This document shows, one piece after another, positions 2,034-7,066 of a DNA stretch of 64,000 nucleotides. Position 1 is the stretch's first letter, and each line of letters begins with the position of its first letter. Both the position numbers and the translations under genes were made by a program. The stretch is from the sequence record KC801932; one strand, given 5' to 3'. This stretch comes from Escherichia phage Lw1. The notes under the pieces are model-generated. The model made no database searches, was not told the DNA's origin, and saw only the letters and a program-made list of their open reading frames with translations.

Positions 2034-2301
2034 ACGATATGAAAAATATTTTGGGGAAACCCCATTGTATTTGCCACTGCTTACGATGTTCGGTATTGAC
2101 CATATTGTAAGCGAAAGCGATGATAGTGTATGTTTGACGTTCGTTAAAGGGAACTGGCATTCTTCAAGAACGTTTTCTATCCTGATGCTTGATGCGTTAG
2201 ACGATGATACATTGTCATATGCTCTTGAGGTCGAACTCGTTAATATGGTTGCAGAACTTAGTGAAGGTATTTTAAGTGAAACTAAACTTCAAAAAAATTA
2301 A
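2026..2301 (+). CDS. Hypothetical small protein (approx 91 aa) between 47 and 46
   Basis: ORF bridging 47 stop and 46 start; likely GTG start at 2026 preceded by GGAGG; start uncertain. Confidence 0.3.
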   Translation: MHKRYEKYFGETPLYLPLLTMFGIDHIVSESDDSVCLTFVKGNWHSSRTFSILMLDALDDDTLSYALEVELVNMVAELSEGILSETKLQKN

Positions 2302-3967
2302 GTATCAGAATATTCTGTCGGTAGGGAATACCCCGATCGAACTTGAATTCGATACTGCAAAGAAAACCCTGATCACGGGTAAAAATGGTGGTGGTAAATC
2401 CACACTGATCGAAGCGTTGACGTATGCTCTTTTTGGTAAGTCATTTCGTGATTTAAAAGTCGGGCAACTGGTAAACAGTGTCAACAAAAAGAAATGTCTG
2501 GTTGAACTGGATATTGAATACGGGAAAGATTCGTACAAAGTCGTTCGCGGACAAAAGCCGAAAGTATTCGAGATCTGGAAAAACGGTGATAAGTTAGCAG
2601 AAGATTCAGCAGCGGGTGATTATCAATCTCAGCTTGAATCCATGCTCAATATTAACCTGGTTGGATTCAAACAGGTAATCGTTTTGGGTACTGCTGGCTA
2701 TACTCCATTCATGGAACTGAAAACACCGGATCGCCGTAAACTGGTTGAAGACCTGTTGTCGCTATCGGTTATCAGTGAAATGGATAAGCTGAACAAATCA
2801 TATGTCCGTGGTGTTAATCAGCAGTTGGATACCCTGTCAATGCAGGTTAACCACATCCAGCAGCAGATCGCTACACACCAGCGCTTCATTGATGAACAGC
2901 GAGCTAAAGCGAACCAGAACAACGCACGATACAAAGAGATCTACGATAGCCACGTTGAAACCGCTAAGAATATCAAAGCACAGCTTATGCAGTTGCAAGC
3001 GGAGATCGCAGAAACGGTGATCACTGGCGCAGACCGAACGGAAGATATAAACAAACTCCGTGATGGATATACGCGCCTCTCTATGACTGTAGAACAGTTT
3101 AAAAAGCTGGAAGTGATGTATCAGAAAGGTGGTGAGTGTCCGGCCTGTAAACAGGCGATTACGCCCACTCCTGAACGCATGGAAGAGATCGCAAACAACA
3201 TCAAAGCGGGTACGCAACGATTAACGCTGATCAAAACCAAACAGGACGAGTTGCAAGGCATTATGAACGAGTTGCTTCAACAGCAACGCGCACTGAATGC
3301 TATGAAAACGAAATACGAAGCCCTGAAAGGTACGCTGCAAAATGAAGTTGCCAACGCTAAACGCGCACAAGCGATCATGGAACAGGCAAGCGCGGAAGTT
3401 GTTATTGATGAAGAACCTGTTAAGCAGTTGCAACAACAGGAAGCAGATCTGAACGATAAACGTCAAGGATATGTGAAAGAAAAATATATCCGTGGTATCG
3501 TTACAGATATGTTAAAAGATTCGGGTGTAAAAGCCAGCATCGTAAAACGTTATATCCCGTACTTCAACAAGCAGATCGCATACTATCTGGATCTGTTGGG
3601 CGCTGACTACCAGTTCACGTTAGATGATGAATTCAACGAATCAATCAAATCACTGGGGCGCGATGATTTTAGTTACGCATCATTTAGCCAGGGTGAACGC
3701 GCACGAATCAACTTATCGATTCTGTTTACATGGCGCGACGTAACAAGCAAAGTTTCCGGCGTGGACCTGTCTCTTCTGATTATGGACGAAGTTTTCGATA
3801 ACGCTCTTGATAAAGAAGGTGCGTTTGCTGTAGGGGCTGTTCTGAATGGTATTGATGGTAATATCATGGTGATTAGCCACAACGATTTAGACCCTGGTGA
3901 TTTCGATCGTCATATCGTCATGGCTAAATTGGGGCGCTTCTCGAAGATGGAAATCAAGAAGTCTTAA
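2276..3967 (+). CDS. 46: Recombination endonuclease subunit gp46 (Rad50/SbcC-like ATPase)
   Basis: 563 aa; Walker A GKNGGGKST; coiled-coil middle with CPACK zinc hook; N-terminus matches remembered T4 gp46; GTG start. Confidence 0.9.
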   Translation: MKLNFKKIKYQNILSVGNTPIELEFDTAKKTLITGKNGGGKSTLIEALTYALFGKSFRDLKVGQLVNSVNKKKCLVELDIEYGKDSYKVVRGQKPKVFEIWKNGDKLAEDSAAGDYQSQLESMLNINLVGFKQVIVLGTAGYTPFMELKTPDRRKLVEDLLSLSVISEMDKLNKSYVRGVNQQLDTLSMQVNHIQQQIATHQRFIDEQRAKANQNNARYKEIYDSHVETAKNIKAQLMQLQAEIAETVITGADRTEDINKLRDGYTRLSMTVEQFKKLEVMYQKGGECPACKQAITPTPERMEEIANNIKAGTQRLTLIKTKQDELQGIMNELLQQQRALNAMKTKYEALKGTLQNEVANAKRAQAIMEQASAEVVIDEEPVKQLQQQEADLNDKRQGYVKEKYIRGIVTDMLKDSGVKASIVKRYIPYFNKQIAYYLDLLGADYQFTLDDEFNESIKSLGRDDFSYASFSQGERARINLSILFTWRDVTSKVSGVDLSLLIMDEVFDNALDKEGAFAVGAVLNGIDGNIMVISHNDLDPGDFDRHIVMAKLGRFSKMEIKKS

Positions 3968-4664
3968 ACTTACAGTTGTCAAAATGCCATCGTTTCATAT
4001 TGGTGGCATCACCAACTTTAGCGCAATGGGGGCAAGTTAATTGCTCCCTTTTCTTTTGTATTTTTCTGTCTGGGTTCTTGGTACAATATGGAATATGACT
4101 GTTCAAGTAATGCACTGTCGATTCTGTACCACAATGAGGACAAGAACCGCGCTCCGATACTACGTTTCTGTTTTTATGTGCTCGCATGACTCCTGCAAAT
4201 GCATTCACTTTCCCTTCATTGCCTGGCTTGTTCTTGCAGTTGTCGAAGTGCCAGCGGTTCATATTACCTACTAAGCCGGACGTATTGCAATGAGGACACG
4301 TAACCCTGTTCTGTTGAAGTTTGGCCTGTCTCATGCGTAAGCGTGTCTCTTCGCTGAACTCTTTTTGTTTCTGGGCTTCAAGTGCTTTTTCTTTTAACCA
4401 TCCATAGCGGCGGTTTGCTGTACGCGCAGACGATCGAGAAGTGCCGACTGTAAGCATGTTAGCAGCATAAATTAGTTTATGGTTGCCTGGATACATCTTA
4501 ACCAATAGCAGATGTGCTATGAAATGTTGACGTGCTGACAGTTCAACCAGATTTTCGGGATCGTCCGATCCTCCCATACATTTTGGAACGATGTGGTGTT
4601 TCTCTTTGTACTCTGCATCCGTTCCGGCAGTCATGAGTTGTTCGTAAATCTTATGATAATTCAT
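3954..4664 (-). CDS. Free-standing HNH homing endonuclease (Mob-like)
   Basis: HHIVPKCMGGSDDPENLVELSARQHFIAH HNH motif; C-terminal repeated CPHC/HFDNC zinc-binding modules; overlaps gp46 3' end on opposite strand. Confidence 0.8.
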   Translation of the reverse strand: MNYHKIYEQLMTAGTDAEYKEKHHIVPKCMGGSDDPENLVELSARQHFIAHLLLVKMYPGNHKLIYAANMLTVGTSRSSARTANRRYGWLKEKALEAQKQKEFSEETRLRMRQAKLQQNRVTCPHCNTSGLVGNMNRWHFDNCKNKPGNEGKVNAFAGVMRAHKNRNVVSERGSCPHCGTESTVHYLNSHIPYCTKNPDRKIQKKREQLTCPHCAKVGDATNMKRWHFDNCKFKTS

Positions 4665-4712
4665 GATGATAAACCCTGTTTGATAGTCCGTTAGATACCC
4701 CTATTTAGGAAC

Positions 4713-4910
4713 ATGATTATGTTAGAACGAGAATTTGAATTGATGACCTCTCCAGAAGCGGAGAGGTTTTATCTTCATAACGAACTGTTGGAAGAAAAAC
4801 ACGTTGTCACTATGGAAGATGTCAAAGAAGCCTTTAAAGACAATCAGTTAGAGCTAACGCGAATACTGAATAATAAATCGTCTATGTGGTTTCTCGAAAA
4901 AATCTATTGA
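4713..4910 (+). CDS. Hypothetical protein (65 aa)
   Basis: Small acidic ORF; followed by hairpin at 4937. Confidence 0.3.
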   Translation: MIMLEREFELMTSPEAERFYLHNELLEEKHVVTMEDVKEAFKDNQLELTRILNNKSSMWFLEKIY

Positions 4911-4936
4911 CATCAGAACATAAATACCTTAAAGTT

Positions 4937-4969
4937 GCCCGTGTACTGAGTTGCACGGGCTTTTATTTT
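4937..4969 (+). terminator. Hairpin plus T-run (gcccgtgtactgagttgcacgggc ttttatttt)
   Basis: Inverted repeat followed by T-rich tract, immediately upstream of RBS GAGGAA and ATG 4982. Confidence 0.45.
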
Positions 4970-4981
4970 GAGGAACGGAAA

Positions 4982-6679
4982 ATGATTAACGAAAAAATGA
5001 CACACCGCGAAGCGTTGGAAATCTTAGGGGCCACGGGTACTGAATCCAAAGCTGAAATGTCCAAACTCTTCAAACGTGCTTCTCTGCGTAATCACCCCGA
5101 TCGTGGTGGTAGCACAGAACTCATGCAAAAAATTAACCAGGCATATGACGTAGTAACGAGAACAAACAGTTCTGGTGAAACTATGATGGATATGCGAGCG
5201 CGTCACGCAGCGAATAAAAAAGCGTGGGAAGAAAAACTGGATGCGTATTTTGTTGTTGCTAAGAACTATTTCAGCACGAAATTTAACGCACAGGAATTCG
5301 CTGAATACTTCACCAAATACACCGGACAGCCGACGACCTTCACACAGGAAGTCAAGAAAGATACAATTTCCGTATCTGCTGTGTTCCGTTTCACTTCTGG
5401 TGATGCTCACTTTGATTTCGCTTTCTACTGCAAGCCAGAAGAAGGTAAAGGTTTGATGTCTCCTGATGCAAGCGCATTGGGTAGTGTTTCTGTCAATACT
5501 CTGGTACTGGTTGGAACCAAAAAACATAAAATGGCAAGCCGTGAATATCAATGGGGCAAAAACCCAGATAAGATCACACCGGAAAGCCTGTTCCCGTCCA
5601 AGAAACTTGCATCAATTTTCAGCCCGACACAAAAGAACCTCAAGTTCAAACGTGCTGACTATATGACTTCTTTCCGCAAGCACTTAGACGCAGAAATCAG
5701 CGGCAATGATATCTATGTTCCTGTAGGCGACCTGAAAGTTCGTTTCTATCGTCATGTAATGATGCGTAAAGGTGCGTATGTGTTTAGTGCGGTATACGAC
5801 CCAGCGGTAAGTAAATTCCGTTCTGCTGCAAACCTTCGCGGAACTATGTTCGAAGACGAAGACGGCGCATGTTTGGATATGATTATCGACACTTTCAAAG
5901 AAATGCAGAAAGCAAAACCGAACGTTAACGGTATTGTCAGTATCATTGACAAGATGAACGCAGAATTCGCAGCGGGACACCGTTCAGCATCTTTCGTCAA
6001 ACGTATGGCACAGCAAGCAGCAGCACCGAAGCCGGAAGAAAAGCCGAAACGCACTGTTAACCGTATCAGCAAAGATGATTATTTCAACGCATTGAAACAA
6101 GCGGGTGCAACATTCCGTAGCAACTACGGTGAGTTTGATAACGGCGCTGGATTGACTTTCCACTTCAAGCGCGAGATCAGCAACCGTAAAGGCTTCTGGA
6201 GTTTCAGCAGTTTTAATTTCATGCACTCCGGTCAACGTCATGTTGAATGGTTGAAAGATATCGACATTGACGAAGACAGCAAAGGTGCAAGTATCGGTCT
6301 GATGGTTGATACTCTGAAACAGTTGCGTGGTGTTGCTGATTGGTATACTGCAAGAAAGATCCTGGAAGCGATGCGCGATAACTTCAAAGCTGGTAAGTTC
6401 TCCGCACCACACGTTAAGAAAGAAGCCGAACAGAAACGCACTGAGGCGCAAGCTAAGGACGAGTTAGGCGCACAGCCTACCAAACCCCATGAAGCGAAGA
6501 AAGAAGCCCCAGCAGTTGATAAGGCTCACGAGGCGCAAATGGCGAAAGAGAAAGCACAGATGAATGCAACTATTCGTTCTATGCTCTCCGCTCTGGTTAA
6601 AGCTGGACGCAAAGACACGCCGGAAGAAATTAAAAAAGCAGTTGATGAAGCAATCGCTCTTTGGCGCTTGAAACACTAA
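4982..6679 (+). CDS. J-domain (DnaJ-like) protein, 565 aa, with Lys/Glu/Ala-rich C-terminal tail
   Basis: N-terminal J domain with HPD motif (LRNHPDRGGS...INQAYDVV); start placed at ATG 4982 with GAGGAA RBS rather than the upstream GTG of the ORF track. Confidence 0.7.
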   Translation: MINEKMTHREALEILGATGTESKAEMSKLFKRASLRNHPDRGGSTELMQKINQAYDVVTRTNSSGETMMDMRARHAANKKAWEEKLDAYFVVAKNYFSTKFNAQEFAEYFTKYTGQPTTFTQEVKKDTISVSAVFRFTSGDAHFDFAFYCKPEEGKGLMSPDASALGSVSVNTLVLVGTKKHKMASREYQWGKNPDKITPESLFPSKKLASIFSPTQKNLKFKRADYMTSFRKHLDAEISGNDIYVPVGDLKVRFYRHVMMRKGAYVFSAVYDPAVSKFRSAANLRGTMFEDEDGACLDMIIDTFKEMQKAKPNVNGIVSIIDKMNAEFAAGHRSASFVKRMAQQAAAPKPEEKPKRTVNRISKDDYFNALKQAGATFRSNYGEFDNGAGLTFHFKREISNRKGFWSFSSFNFMHSGQRHVEWLKDIDIDEDSKGASIGLMVDTLKQLRGVADWYTARKILEAMRDNFKAGKFSAPHVKKEAEQKRTEAQAKDELGAQPTKPHEAKKEAPAVDKAHEAQMAKEKAQMNATIRSMLSALVKAGRKDTPEEIKKAVDEAIALWRLKH

Positions 6680-6739
6680 CTGATTGTGTTATACTGGGAA
6701 CTGTTGAAAAGCAGTTCCCTTTTTTATGAGGAAAATACT

Positions 6740-7066
6740 ATGAGTTGTCCAACATGGGCGCATTTTGAAAATTTGAAAGAAGGTACGCAGAAACGCGTGT
6801 ATATCAATTTGGGTTGGATTCCACCAACTGATTTTGAATTAGCCGTAATAATGGTTAATGCCAGCAAAGAGATCAGCGAAACTTTCGAATGGGAAAGACT
6901 TACTTTGCCTGTTCATCCAGGGTTCTTTATGGCCCGTGAAAAGTTCGAAGAAATGAAACGAGCGGTAGAATGTATCAATGGGTTGACTACGCCATCTTTA
7001 CGTATGCACTACCGGAACCTATTCACCCTGAAAAAAGCATGGGAAATCGCGGAGGTTGAATTATGA
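6740..7066 (+). CDS. Hypothetical protein
   Basis: ORF with GAGGAA RBS before ATG 6740; no recognised motif. Confidence 0.35.
   Translation: MSCPTWAHFENLKEGTQKRVYINLGWIPPTDFELAVIMVNASKEISETFEWERLTLPVHPGFFMAREKFEEMKRAVECINGLTTPSLRMHYRNLFTLKKAWEIAEVEL

Follow-up and report, generated by a model that had tools for sequence, protein, structure and literature searches.

The window, by which we mean the whole 64,000-nt stretch of Escherichia phage Lw1 (KC801932) that was analysed, contains near its left end homologs of gp47 and gp46, which are SbcD/SbcC-like (PHROG 100 and 77), and of gp45.2. Gene 46 (2276–3967, plus strand) encodes a Rad50/SbcC-like recombination nuclease subunit of 563 aa, and gene 45.2 (4719–4910, plus strand) a protein of 63 aa counted from a conserved ATG (Pfam Gp45_2, PHROG 1045). 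Between them lies a free-standing, MobE/I-TevIII-like homing endonuclease gene (HEG) of 236 aa with an ATG start (3954–4664, minus strand), which is antisense to genes 47, 46 and 45.2 and diverges from the last of these. The TGA stop of the HEG is the complement of 3954–3956 and the TAA stop of gene 46 is found at 3965–3967, the two genes overlapping by 14 nt (3954–3967). The first-pass annotation had described a 236-aa minus-strand ORF sharing the 3′-terminal 14 nt of gene 46, which the ORF coordinates confirm, and had assigned its product to the HNH endonucleases with C-terminal zinc-binding repeats, an assignment borne out by PHROG 655, by homology to MobE and by three finger modules. Elsewhere in the 64-kb window, neither this HEG nor the HNH-AP2 HEGs of phage RB16 nor MobE have any paralog.

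Domain architecture of the encoded protein

The protein matches PHROG 655 'homing endonuclease' across residues 1–234 (E=7e-63) and T4 MobE over its full length (residues 1–236, 35.6% identity, E=6e-27), and 534 homologs were recovered with E<1e-5. Informative pairs give dN/dS values of 0.06–0.12, and there are no internal stops across nine copies. From the PHROG match, the number of homologs and the dN/dS values it follows that the HEG is not a chance ORF. The AF2 model of the protein has a mean pLDDT of 88.5.

The predicted HNH catalytic core occupies residues E21–H51 (4512–4604, minus strand) and has the arrangement HH-x(13)-N-x(8)-H, with H23, H24, N38, H47 and H51 all invariant in 63 homologs that are 30–97% identical. 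The AF2 prediction for this region is a beta-beta-alpha fold (beta21–24, beta39–42 and a helix at 44–57), and it can be aligned both to the HNH of a group II intron maturase, 6me0 (EIHHILPKHKGGSDDLDNLV..H; profile E=0.003), and to McrA. Pfam and NCBIfam scans of the protein gave sub-threshold matches only, the score for Pfam HNH (PF01844) being 17.1 bits against a gathering cut-off of 21.4 bits, which T4 MobE clears with 24.6 bits; several homologs of the HEG carry precomputed PF01844 assignments. Alignment to MobE also defines a NUMOD3-like motif, FSEETRLRMRQAK, at residues 103–115 (4320–4358, minus strand), which matches column for column a stretch of MobE, ISEETRLKMSKAK, recognised there by Pfam as NUMOD3. 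The Pfam scan did not detect NUMOD3 in the window protein, and precomputed PF07460 assignments are found on many of its homologs.

The remainder of the protein carries three predicted zinc fingers. Finger 1 (C123, C126, H139 and C143; CX2CX12HX3C; 4236–4298, minus strand) is modelled by AF2 as a beta-beta-alpha module at 120–142 and matches the C-terminal finger of T4 I-TevIII (E=3e-4). Finger 2 (C175, C178, H190 and C194; CX2CX11HX3C; 4083–4142, minus strand) forms a similar modelled module at 172–196, and a DNA-level repeat, D1/D2, shows that the finger module has been duplicated. Finger 3 (C211, C214, H227 and C231; CX2CX12HX3C; 3972–4034, minus strand) is common to the MobE C-terminus and I-TevIII (tblastn of I-TevIII, E=2e-5), and its four ligands are invariant in the 63 homologs. 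Taken together, these features confirm the protein as an HNH homing endonuclease of the T4 MobE/I-TevIII family, with nuclease activity predicted, and purifying selection together with the retention of its predicted catalytic residues and zinc ligands shows the gene to be intact.

The inserted cassette and the mosaic 3′ end of gene 46

Comparison with the empty site of iPHaGe-KPN-12i, which has the same haplotype, delimits an inserted cassette of 758 bp (3961–4718, boundaries ± about 6 nt), the empty sequence reading ...GAGATCCGAAA|ATGCTAG... and the window ...GAAATCAAGAA(insert)ATGTTAG.... At its left end the cassette provides the last Ser codon and the stop of gene 46, and at its right end it abuts the gene 45.2 start codon exactly and provides a TAGGAA Shine-Dalgarno for that gene, replacing 46–45.2 translational coupling by a Shine-Dalgarno of its own. 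The insert is best described as placed directly 5′ of the 45.2 ATG and inside the last codon but one of gene 46. Its GC content of 43.3% equals that of the flanks. A transposon or IS element was rejected on the grounds that the ends of the insert bear no terminal direct or inverted repeats, the internal repeats being the duplicated finger modules, and an intron on the grounds that Rfam matches neither an intron nor any other RNA family in 3600–5100 and that gene 46 needs no splicing to be complete.

As regards expression, no TATAAATA late promoter lies within reach of the antisense HEG, sigma-70-like sites near it occur at chance level only, and its own Shine-Dalgarno is weak (AGGG, upstream on the minus strand). 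A terminator-like hairpin is located within the cassette just past gene 46 (4028–4048, plus strand); in a crude scan of divergent HEG-bearing alleles it was kept in EC-W2 and EBPL, and not clearly so in phiKp_9, MX01 and G4498.

The occupation of this junction varies between relatives. In Pseudotevenvirus, 22 records carry the HEG and 34 are contiguous and empty, gene 46 directly joining 45.2 in RB43, CfP1, Miller, GuL6, Olmo and others, while RB16 has an unrelated HNH_3+AP2 HEG at the same position. Three states of the junction are found in Slopekvirus, where Matisse-like phages have another HNH gene (a preprint also describes an HEG next to an SbcC-like gene in slopekviruses), and in Tequatrovirus it is mostly empty, including in T4, T2 and RB14. 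In all contexts examined, at 42–100% protein identity, the HEG lies antisense between gene 46 and 45.2. The first-pass annotation had proposed a mobile insertion rather than a fixed syntenic gene and had suggested comparing the junction with relatives lacking the ORF, with conservation in all relatives as the outcome that would speak against it. The polymorphism in all three genera upholds the proposal and, because of the empty junctions, in which gene 46 abuts 45.2 directly, and of the different HEG in RB16, universal conservation does not apply.

The surroundings of the HEG point to a different ancestry from that of the gene itself. On both sides the window backbone is 99–100% identical to RB16 (99% in the gene 46 body), while between about 3779 and 4718 it is 98.5–100% identical to the HEG allele of PF-CE2/leE, phages with a 'leb/lee'-type backbone only ~85–88% identical to the window. 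Against PF-CE2 the values are 100% for the tract 3779–3940, 98.5% for the cassette and 88% for the gene 46 body. Gene 46 is accordingly chimeric, being RB16-like until about 3712 and of the HEG-linked haplotype from about 3779, where a divergent 3′ tract that we call type a runs from Walker B to the C-terminus (3779–3960, plus strand); this tract is 98–99% identical to leE and EC-W2 and only 64–68% to RB16, RB43 and Olmo. The patch is one-sided, with a left tract of at least 180 nt and a right breakpoint at most 11 nt from the insert: the RB16 match resumes at the 45.2 ATG, the first site that discriminates from PF-CE2 being 4730. By identity the HEG is incongruent with its flanks, as is looked for in a homing gene, and a flanking tract was transferred with it. 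Judged from these sequence identities, the cassette and the one-sided gene 46 tract are shown to have moved laterally into an RB16-like backbone. The combination of this HEG with an RB16-like backbone was absent from both the phage collection and the assembly index. Other parent switches in the window, at 1650–2450 and about 6450–7000, are both RB43-like and have no linked HEG.

The tails of gene 46 sort with the state of the junction. Among the 22 HEG-bearing records 11 have tail type a and 11 type b, neither of which occurs in any of the 34 standard empty records, all of these carrying a third tail type. Identity between the two tails is only 66%, against 96–98% between their HEGs, and tail b is also paired with a HEG variant of 78% identity; because of this the tails are not simply co-converted donor DNA from a single spread. 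Type a is present without the HEG in iPHaGe-KPN-11i/12i, type b has a 96% match to a metagenomic Pseudotevenvirus-like contig, and the RB16 HEG is likewise flanked by its own divergent gene 46 tail, from about window position 3713. The simple explanation that the tail was imported from another genus was rejected, since tail a is 62–69% identical to every other sampled type, including Slopekvirus, and its HEG-less occurrence within Pseudotevenvirus is further evidence against import, as is the Pseudotevenvirus-like match of tail b.

Proposed homing at gene 46 and alternative explanations

We consider it likely that the HEG encodes a free-standing, site-specific homing endonuclease of the MobE/I-TevIII family that is resident at the 46/45.2 junction. 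In a mixed infection, the zinc fingers and the NUMOD3-like motif would bind the HEG-less 'standard' allele, most probably in the final ~180 nt of the gene 46 coding sequence (Walker-B to H-loop) on the side of the HEG 3′ end, and the HNH core would nick or cut the DNA at the bound sequence. T4-type break repair would then copy the HEG allele into the gap, and the 758-bp cassette would be transferred by co-conversion along with the part of gene 46 that separates the cut from the insert. A divergent gene 46 tail would protect HEG-bearing genomes, and the type a tract is proposed to be co-converted, cleavage-resistant or both. The first-pass annotation had placed the target in or next to gene 46, and this has indirect support from the one-sided tract, the linkage of the HEG to non-standard tails and the analogy with MobE in nrdB, which together suggest a site of this kind; the nuclease activity and the immunity conferred by divergent tails are inferred.

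A possible but rather doubtful extension of this proposal would be that tails a and b are cleavage-resistant alleles kept by long conflict, and that a junction-specialised MobE-like nuclease diversifies the C-terminus of a Rad50-like ATPase. This reading rests on tails whose start coincides exactly with the Walker-B codons and which are found reassorted with different HEG variants. It would span at least four Straboviridae genera, with the rival HEGs (the RB16 HNH-AP2 and the Matisse-like HNH) each having a resistant tail of its own, and the HEG-less tail a would be one rare relict or precursor.

Several observations weigh against the homing model: tail a occurs without the HEG, the two HEG-linked tails are too divergent for a single spread, ordinary recombination could yield the same mosaic, no promoter is recognisable for the antisense ORF, and Pfam scores HNH below its cut-off and does not detect NUMOD3. 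Of the alternatives, it is unlikely, although the strong purifying selection and the fidelity to the site down to 42% identity would fit, that the nuclease is kept mainly for the benefit of the phage, either through marker exclusion of HEG-less relatives or through modulation of 46/45.2 expression via the overlap. Partial exclusion by HEGs is documented for T4 against T2 (PMC2993671, PMC2988022), and the replacement of 46/45.2 coupling by a separate Shine-Dalgarno, together with the hairpin after gene 46, would provide a means of modulation. A beneficial gene is at odds, however, with the lack of the HEG in most relatives (the 34 empty records in the genus and most Tequatroviruses), and occupation of the same site by a different HEG family is typical of selfish elements that can be dispensed with; the hairpin, moreover, is not clearly conserved in divergent copies.

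Less probable still, to the point of being distinctly improbable, is that the MobE-like gene no longer homes, or that its nuclease is irrelevant to its spread, and that a patch of 940 bp arrived by ordinary recombination between co-infecting phages, the tails being old linked alleles. Homologous recombination is rampant in T4-like phages and their genomes are highly mosaic, and the HEG-free parent switches elsewhere in the window, the reassortment of tails a and b with HEG variants, the existence of tail a on its own and the failure to find expression signals for the HEG would all be accommodated. It speaks against this alternative that the patch coincides exactly with the HEG and its one-sided tract, that the linkage between HEG and non-standard tail is perfect (22/22 against 0/34), that selection has been strongly purifying with the predicted catalytic and zinc ligands intact, and that three or more genera carry the same HEG lineage sporadically at this site; in addition, mobility has been demonstrated by experiment for the homolog MobE (PMC2790892). 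It is hardly credible that the ORF is a remnant in decay or that it encodes a DNA-binding zinc-finger protein whose nuclease domain is dead, for although the Pfam HNH score is sub-threshold and T4 carries a truncated HEG relic, I-TevIII, the Lw1 gene is full length with no stops in nine copies, has a dN/dS of 0.06–0.12 and keeps the five core residues that are invariant in 63 homologs.

Comparison with known homing systems

T4-like phages are textbook carriers of free-standing HNH homing endonucleases of the Mob type, and the gene described here is an ordinary, previously annotated kind of mobile gene, of which the Lw1 copy bears clear traces of transfer. By itself it carries little weight, orthologs at the same site with 96–99% DNA identity having already been annotated. 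Its interest is that of a clean natural case, in which the HEG at this junction of an RB16-like genome has been exchanged for one of a different family, and it shows HEGs producing chimeric versions of an essential recombination gene. With a delimited 758-bp insert, a one-sided tract and tail linkage, the target site and immunity of a MobE relative become directly testable.

The closest known copies are the orthologs annotated in GenBank as 'putative Mob-like HNH homing endonuclease' in Cronobacter phages GAP161, leB, leE and leN, Enterobacter phage PF-CE2 and others. Their DNA is 91–98.8% identical to the Lw1 HEG, and they share its length of 236 aa, its antisense orientation and the 14-nt overlap with gene 46, but they sit in the 'leb/lee'-type backbone, whereas the Lw1 copy is in an RB16-like one. 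RB16 itself, the closest relative of the window, has 'putative homing endonuclease RB16 2' at the identical 46/45.2 junction; this HEG differs in belonging to the HNH_3+AP2 family, in being co-oriented with gene 46 and in its length of 191 aa. RB16 and Lw1 exemplify competition between two HEG families for a single site, comparable to the replacement of mobC/mobE by SegH/Hef to which PMC2988022 refers.

The best-studied relative is MobE of T4, which is mobile and in which deletion of the HNH domain abolishes a strand-specific nick at nt 122–126 of T2 nrdB; nrdB adjoins the mobE 3′ end, and recombination points cluster at the nick (Wilson & Edgell 2009, PMC2790892). Read from the N-terminus, HNH core, NUMOD3 motif and terminal CPHC...RWHxDxCKFK finger follow one another in the Lw1 protein as they do in MobE, and the motif SEETRxxM is common to both proteins. 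Both genes are free-standing between two conserved genes and overlap a neighbour's stop codon, and the Lw1 tract lies on the side of the HEG 3′ end, as does the MobE nick 122–126 nt into nrdB. The site itself is different, being 46/45.2 in Lw1 and nrdA/nrdB in T4, and whereas T4 mobE is co-oriented with its neighbours, promoterless and read through from nrdA (PMC2790892), the Lw1 HEG is antisense to the flanking genes. The Lw1 protein has one NUMOD3-like motif and three fingers, in contrast to the three NUMOD3 repeats and single finger of MobE, and falls below the Pfam thresholds for HNH and NUMOD3 that MobE exceeds.

I-TevIII, encoded by the nrdB intron of RB3, is a dimer with two fingers of the form CX2CX12-13HX3C, needed for DNA binding according to motif mutation, and its double-strand break falls at a distance of 14/16 bp from the insertion site (Robbins et al. 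2007, PMC1865063). Like I-TevIII, the Lw1 protein has an HNH domain followed by zinc fingers, of which fingers 1 and 3 match those of I-TevIII, and zinc and DNA binding are predicted. Unlike I-TevIII, the Lw1 HEG is free-standing and encodes three fingers, with spacers of 12, 11 and 12.

A MobE-like endonuclease gene beside gene 46

The flagged ORF lies where the first-pass annotation placed it, on the minus strand at 3954..4664 with an ATG start and 236 aa, sharing 14 nt (3954-3967) with the end of gene 46 (2276..3967, plus strand, 563 aa). Its neighbours are clear homologs of T4 gp47 (SbcD-like; PHROG 100, E=5e-121), gp46 (SbcC/Rad50-like; PHROG 77, E=1e-170; Pfam AAA_23 and SMC_N) and gp45.2 (PHROG 1045; Pfam Gp45_2). 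The ORF is a genuine gene and no chance reading frame, since it matches PHROG 655 'homing endonuclease' across its full length (E=7e-63), has 534 homologs at E<1e-5 in a large protein collection and is under purifying selection, with a dN/dS of 0.07 against the EC-W2 copy and 0.08 against the Slopekvirus copy. None of nine copies of this homing endonuclease gene (HEG) contains a stop codon.

The description of the product as an HNH endonuclease with C-terminal zinc-binding repeats is borne out by an invariant H-N-H core, homology to MobE and three CX2CX11-12HX3C modules. A tblastn search of phage genomes gave graded full-length relatives down to T4 MobE (35.6% identity over 236 residues, E=6e-27), and alignment of the window protein with MobE and three other relatives revealed three common elements: an N-terminal block (E-HH-I-P..GG.D..NLV.L....H..AH), the motif SEETRxxM, at which Pfam scores NUMOD3 in MobE, and a terminal CPHC...RWHxDxCKFK module. 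Residues that never vary across 63 homologs (30-97% identity) include H23, H24, N38, H47 and H51, which form the H-N-H core, and the last-finger ligands C211, C214, H227 and C231. Searched against PDB sequences, the family profile hit a group II intron maturase in its HNH domain (6me0, E=0.003) and also McrA (E=0.04). The window protein scores below the Pfam HNH threshold (17.1 vs 21.4 bits) and has no NUMOD3 match in the Pfam scan, and we therefore assign it to the HNH proteins on sequence evidence and MobE homology rather than on a fold search; T4 MobE passes both thresholds.

The C-terminal modules are, in order, CX2CX12HX3C, CX2CX11HX3C and CX2CX12HX3C, and are also visible as DNA-level repeats within the gene. 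Two of the three directly match the fingers of I-TevIII, where mutating this motif showed that DNA binding depends on it (PMC1865063). An AlphaFold model, based on the alignment of 63 sequences and confident at a mean pLDDT of 88.5, predicts a beta-beta-alpha unit spanning residues 21-57 together with three small fingers of beta-beta-alpha form.

The HEG is antisense to everything around it, in contrast to T4 mobE, which is promoterless and expressed by read-through. Upstream of it no late-promoter consensus was found, and no sigma-70-like site scored above chance. A terminator-like hairpin, GGGGGCAAGTTAATTGCTCCC then TTTTCTTTTG, occupies 4028-4048 on the plus strand, with a tail to 4058, 60 nt past the gene 46 stop and within the HEG coding region of the opposite strand, and could stop gene 47-46 transcripts from running antisense through the HEG. 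The hairpin is retained in EC-W2 and EBPL, and not clearly in phiKp_9, MX01 or G4498.

Junction states and the limits of the insert

The window phage is a Pseudotevenvirus (RB43/RB16 group, Straboviridae). In RB43, CfP1, Miller, GuL6, Olmo and others the junction is empty, gene 46 (567 aa) directly abutting 45.2 with its stop overlapping the 45.2 ATG (ATGTTAG), and with a 302-nt probe 34 records are contiguous across it. The antisense 236-aa HEG, with the same 14-nt overlap, is present in 22 records (GAP161, leB, leE, leN, PF-CE2, EBPL, UPEC03 and others), where it is usually annotated as a 'putative Mob-like HNH homing endonuclease'; the comparison of this junction in relatives thus clearly excludes a fixed syntenic gene. 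RB16, the closest relative, holds a different HEG here, of the HNH_3+AP2 class, on the same strand as gene 46 (4006-4581 in the RB16 record, equivalent to window 3961-4718); two HEG families compete for the 46/45.2 site.

Three states are also found in Slopekvirus: the window HEG lineage at 64% protein identity (phiKp_1, PMBT1, phT4A), an empty junction (KP15, Miro) and another HNH gene (Matisse). That two slopekviruses have an HEG beside their SbcC-like gene, and that KP27 does not, was already noted in a preprint (10.1101/2022.04.06.486684). The Tequatroviruses T4, T2 and RB14 are empty at this junction, and at most 60 of 605 Tequatrovirus-type records span the HEG-containing query. Homologs at 42-100% identity are antisense between gene 46 and 45.2 in every context examined (four named genera and three metagenomic contigs), and more distant relatives such as MobE are located elsewhere; by these placements the window HEG belongs to a sub-lineage long faithful to a single site.

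The phages iPHaGe-KPN-11i and -12i have the window-type gene-46 tail (97.7% identity) and lack the HEG. Their junction reads ...GAGATCCGAAA joined to ATGCTAGAACG, with a gp46 tail of ...GRFSKMEIRKC* whose stop overlaps the ATG of 45.2; the window junction reads ...GAAATCAAGAA, then an insert running from GTCTTAAACTT to GGAACATGATT, then ATGTTAGAACG. The comparison thus delimits an insert of 758 bp at 3961-4718 (+/- a few nt), which begins inside the penultimate gene-46 codon and extends right up to the start codon of 45.2. It supplies the last Ser codon and stop of gene 46 (tail ...SKMEIKKS*) and a putative TAGGAA Shine-Dalgarno for 45.2, which would replace the 46-45.2 translational coupling. 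The HEG stop codon lies in sequence derived from gene 46, 5 nt beyond the insert. Terminal repeats are absent from the insert, its GC content equals that of its flanks, and the region gave no match to an RNA family or intron.

The 45.2/DnaJ-like junction is a further variable insertion point, since iPHaGe-KPN-12i has there (2968-3765 of its record) an ORF that the window lacks, an 'endonuclease' of 265 aa whose CapR-homology domain matches Pfam PF21817 (E=1e-12). The product of the DnaJ-like gene itself (window 4886/4982-6679, plus strand; PHROG 7739) is large and conserved, and its N-terminus holds a J domain (Pfam DnaJ E=2e-5, sub-threshold). The gene forms one ORF in CfP1, RB16 and the window but is annotated as two (057w, 058w) in RB43, which suggests a frameshift or sequencing difference.

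A one-sided patch and linked gene-46 tails

A 100-nt sliding comparison gave 99-100% identity between the window and RB16 at 1000-1600, 2350-3650 and 4700-6450; at about 3750-4700 identity to RB16 drops to 36-73%, and the match is instead to PF-CE2, leE and UPEC03 (96-100%). The gene-46 body (2400-3700) is 99% identical to RB16 and 88% to PF-CE2, the tract 3779-3940 is 100% identical to PF-CE2 and 68% to RB16, and the 745-bp cassette region is 98.5% identical to PF-CE2. On the left the foreign tract begins at the Walker-B codons, with CTGCTG followed by ATTATGGACGAA in place of GTACTTGATGAA; on the right the sequence is RB16-type from the 45.2 ATG, the first PF-CE2-discriminating site (4730) already being so. 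From both breakpoints, the transferred patch comprises the HEG and ~180 nt of gene 46 toward the HEG 3' end, with essentially nothing on the other side. The earlier proposal of a mobile HEG amid conserved recombination genes is upheld by the polymorphic junction and by this patch of other-phage type in an RB16-like backbone.

The stretch 3713-3778 matches both RB16 and PF-CE2 poorly and resembles the standard GuL6/RB43 type, so the window is not simply RB16 with its tail exchanged; RB16's own HEG-linked tract starts at ~3713. A second mosaic patch, at 1650-2450 (47/46 junction; ORF 2002-2301), is 95-99% identical to RB43/CfP1 and 58-80% to RB16, which is 99-100% identical to the window on either side. 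The RB16 47/46 junction carries an HNH_3+AP2 HEG ('RB16 1', 176 aa) that the window lacks.

The final ~180 nt of gene 46 occur as discrete haplotypes. With a 175-nt probe the window type (type a) was found in 13 records, comprising 11 with the HEG and the two KPN phages, and a separate probe found the EBPL type (type b) in 11, all with the HEG; together they cover all 22 HEG-bearing records, and neither occurs in the 34 standard empty ones. Standard tails, those of empty junctions, are mutually 89-94% identical even between backbones 12% apart, whereas type a is 64-66% and type b 71-74% identical to them, more divergent than whole gene 46 is from Slopekvirus (76-77% identity). The contrast is sharp even within a single lineage, HEG-bearing PF-CE2 and HEG-less Olmo showing 99% identity over the gene body and 64% over the tail, and tail differences are also non-synonymous (19 of 54 residues in the protein tails). 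The HNH-AP2 HEG of RB16 has its own divergent gene-46 tail, which starts some 65 nt farther upstream, near window 3713. That the tails are mere donor DNA dragged along in one sweep is ruled out: between types a and b identity is only 66%, against 96-98% for the accompanying HEGs, an HEG variant of 78% identity is also found next to type b in a metagenomic contig, and type a occurs without the HEG.

Proposed homing, its rivals and known systems

When T4 and T2 are crossed, T4 MobE proves mobile; a strand-specific nick at nt 122-126 of T2 nrdB, which adjoins the mobE 3' end, is lost once the HNH motif has been deleted, and recombination points in the progeny lie around this nick region (PMC2790892). 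Classical intron-less homing of the same kind is the best-supported reading of the window HEG by analogy. The geometry matches: the one-sided tract and the allele linkage sit in the gene adjoining the HEG 3' end, as nrdB does for mobE. The enzyme would recognise the tail of standard gene 46, the coding region for the Walker B, D-loop and H-loop of the Rad50-like ATPase, conserved sequence being a typical HEG target, and would nick or cut within it; repair from an HEG-bearing genome would then copy the cassette and the tract between, and tails a and b would be resistant alleles. As to the type of cut, MobE nicks and I-TevIII dimerises for a double-strand break (PMC1865063).

The patch could also have been moved by ordinary homologous recombination, with no nuclease involved, and the window does hold other parent switches with no linked HEG, but this leaves the perfect HEG-tail linkage, the site fidelity and the purifying selection unexplained. 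One such switch lies at ~6450-7000, where 92-100% identity to RB43/CfP1 is kept and that to RB16 falls from ~100% to 49-67%, with no obvious HEG at the breakpoint. A beneficial role, in exclusion of HEG-less competitors or in 46/45.2 regulation, is compatible with homing. That the HEG is a dead remnant is very unlikely given its invariant core and finger ligands, purifying selection and nine copies free of stops.

The HEG is already known in kind and annotation: same-site orthologs are annotated in GenBank and the 'mob-like HNH' class has been catalogued in T4-related genomes (PMC2993671). Our literature search found no paper characterising this enzyme or its target. The modest addition made here is a population-genetic picture, namely the 758-bp insert, the one-sided tract, two linked tails and HEG-for-HEG replacement relative to RB16. 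By sequence the HEG falls among the free-standing HNH homing endonucleases of the Mob (MobE-like) group, carries I-TevIII-type fingers and would work alike; T4 MobE differs from it in site, orientation, finger and NUMOD3 copy number, and in passing the Pfam thresholds.
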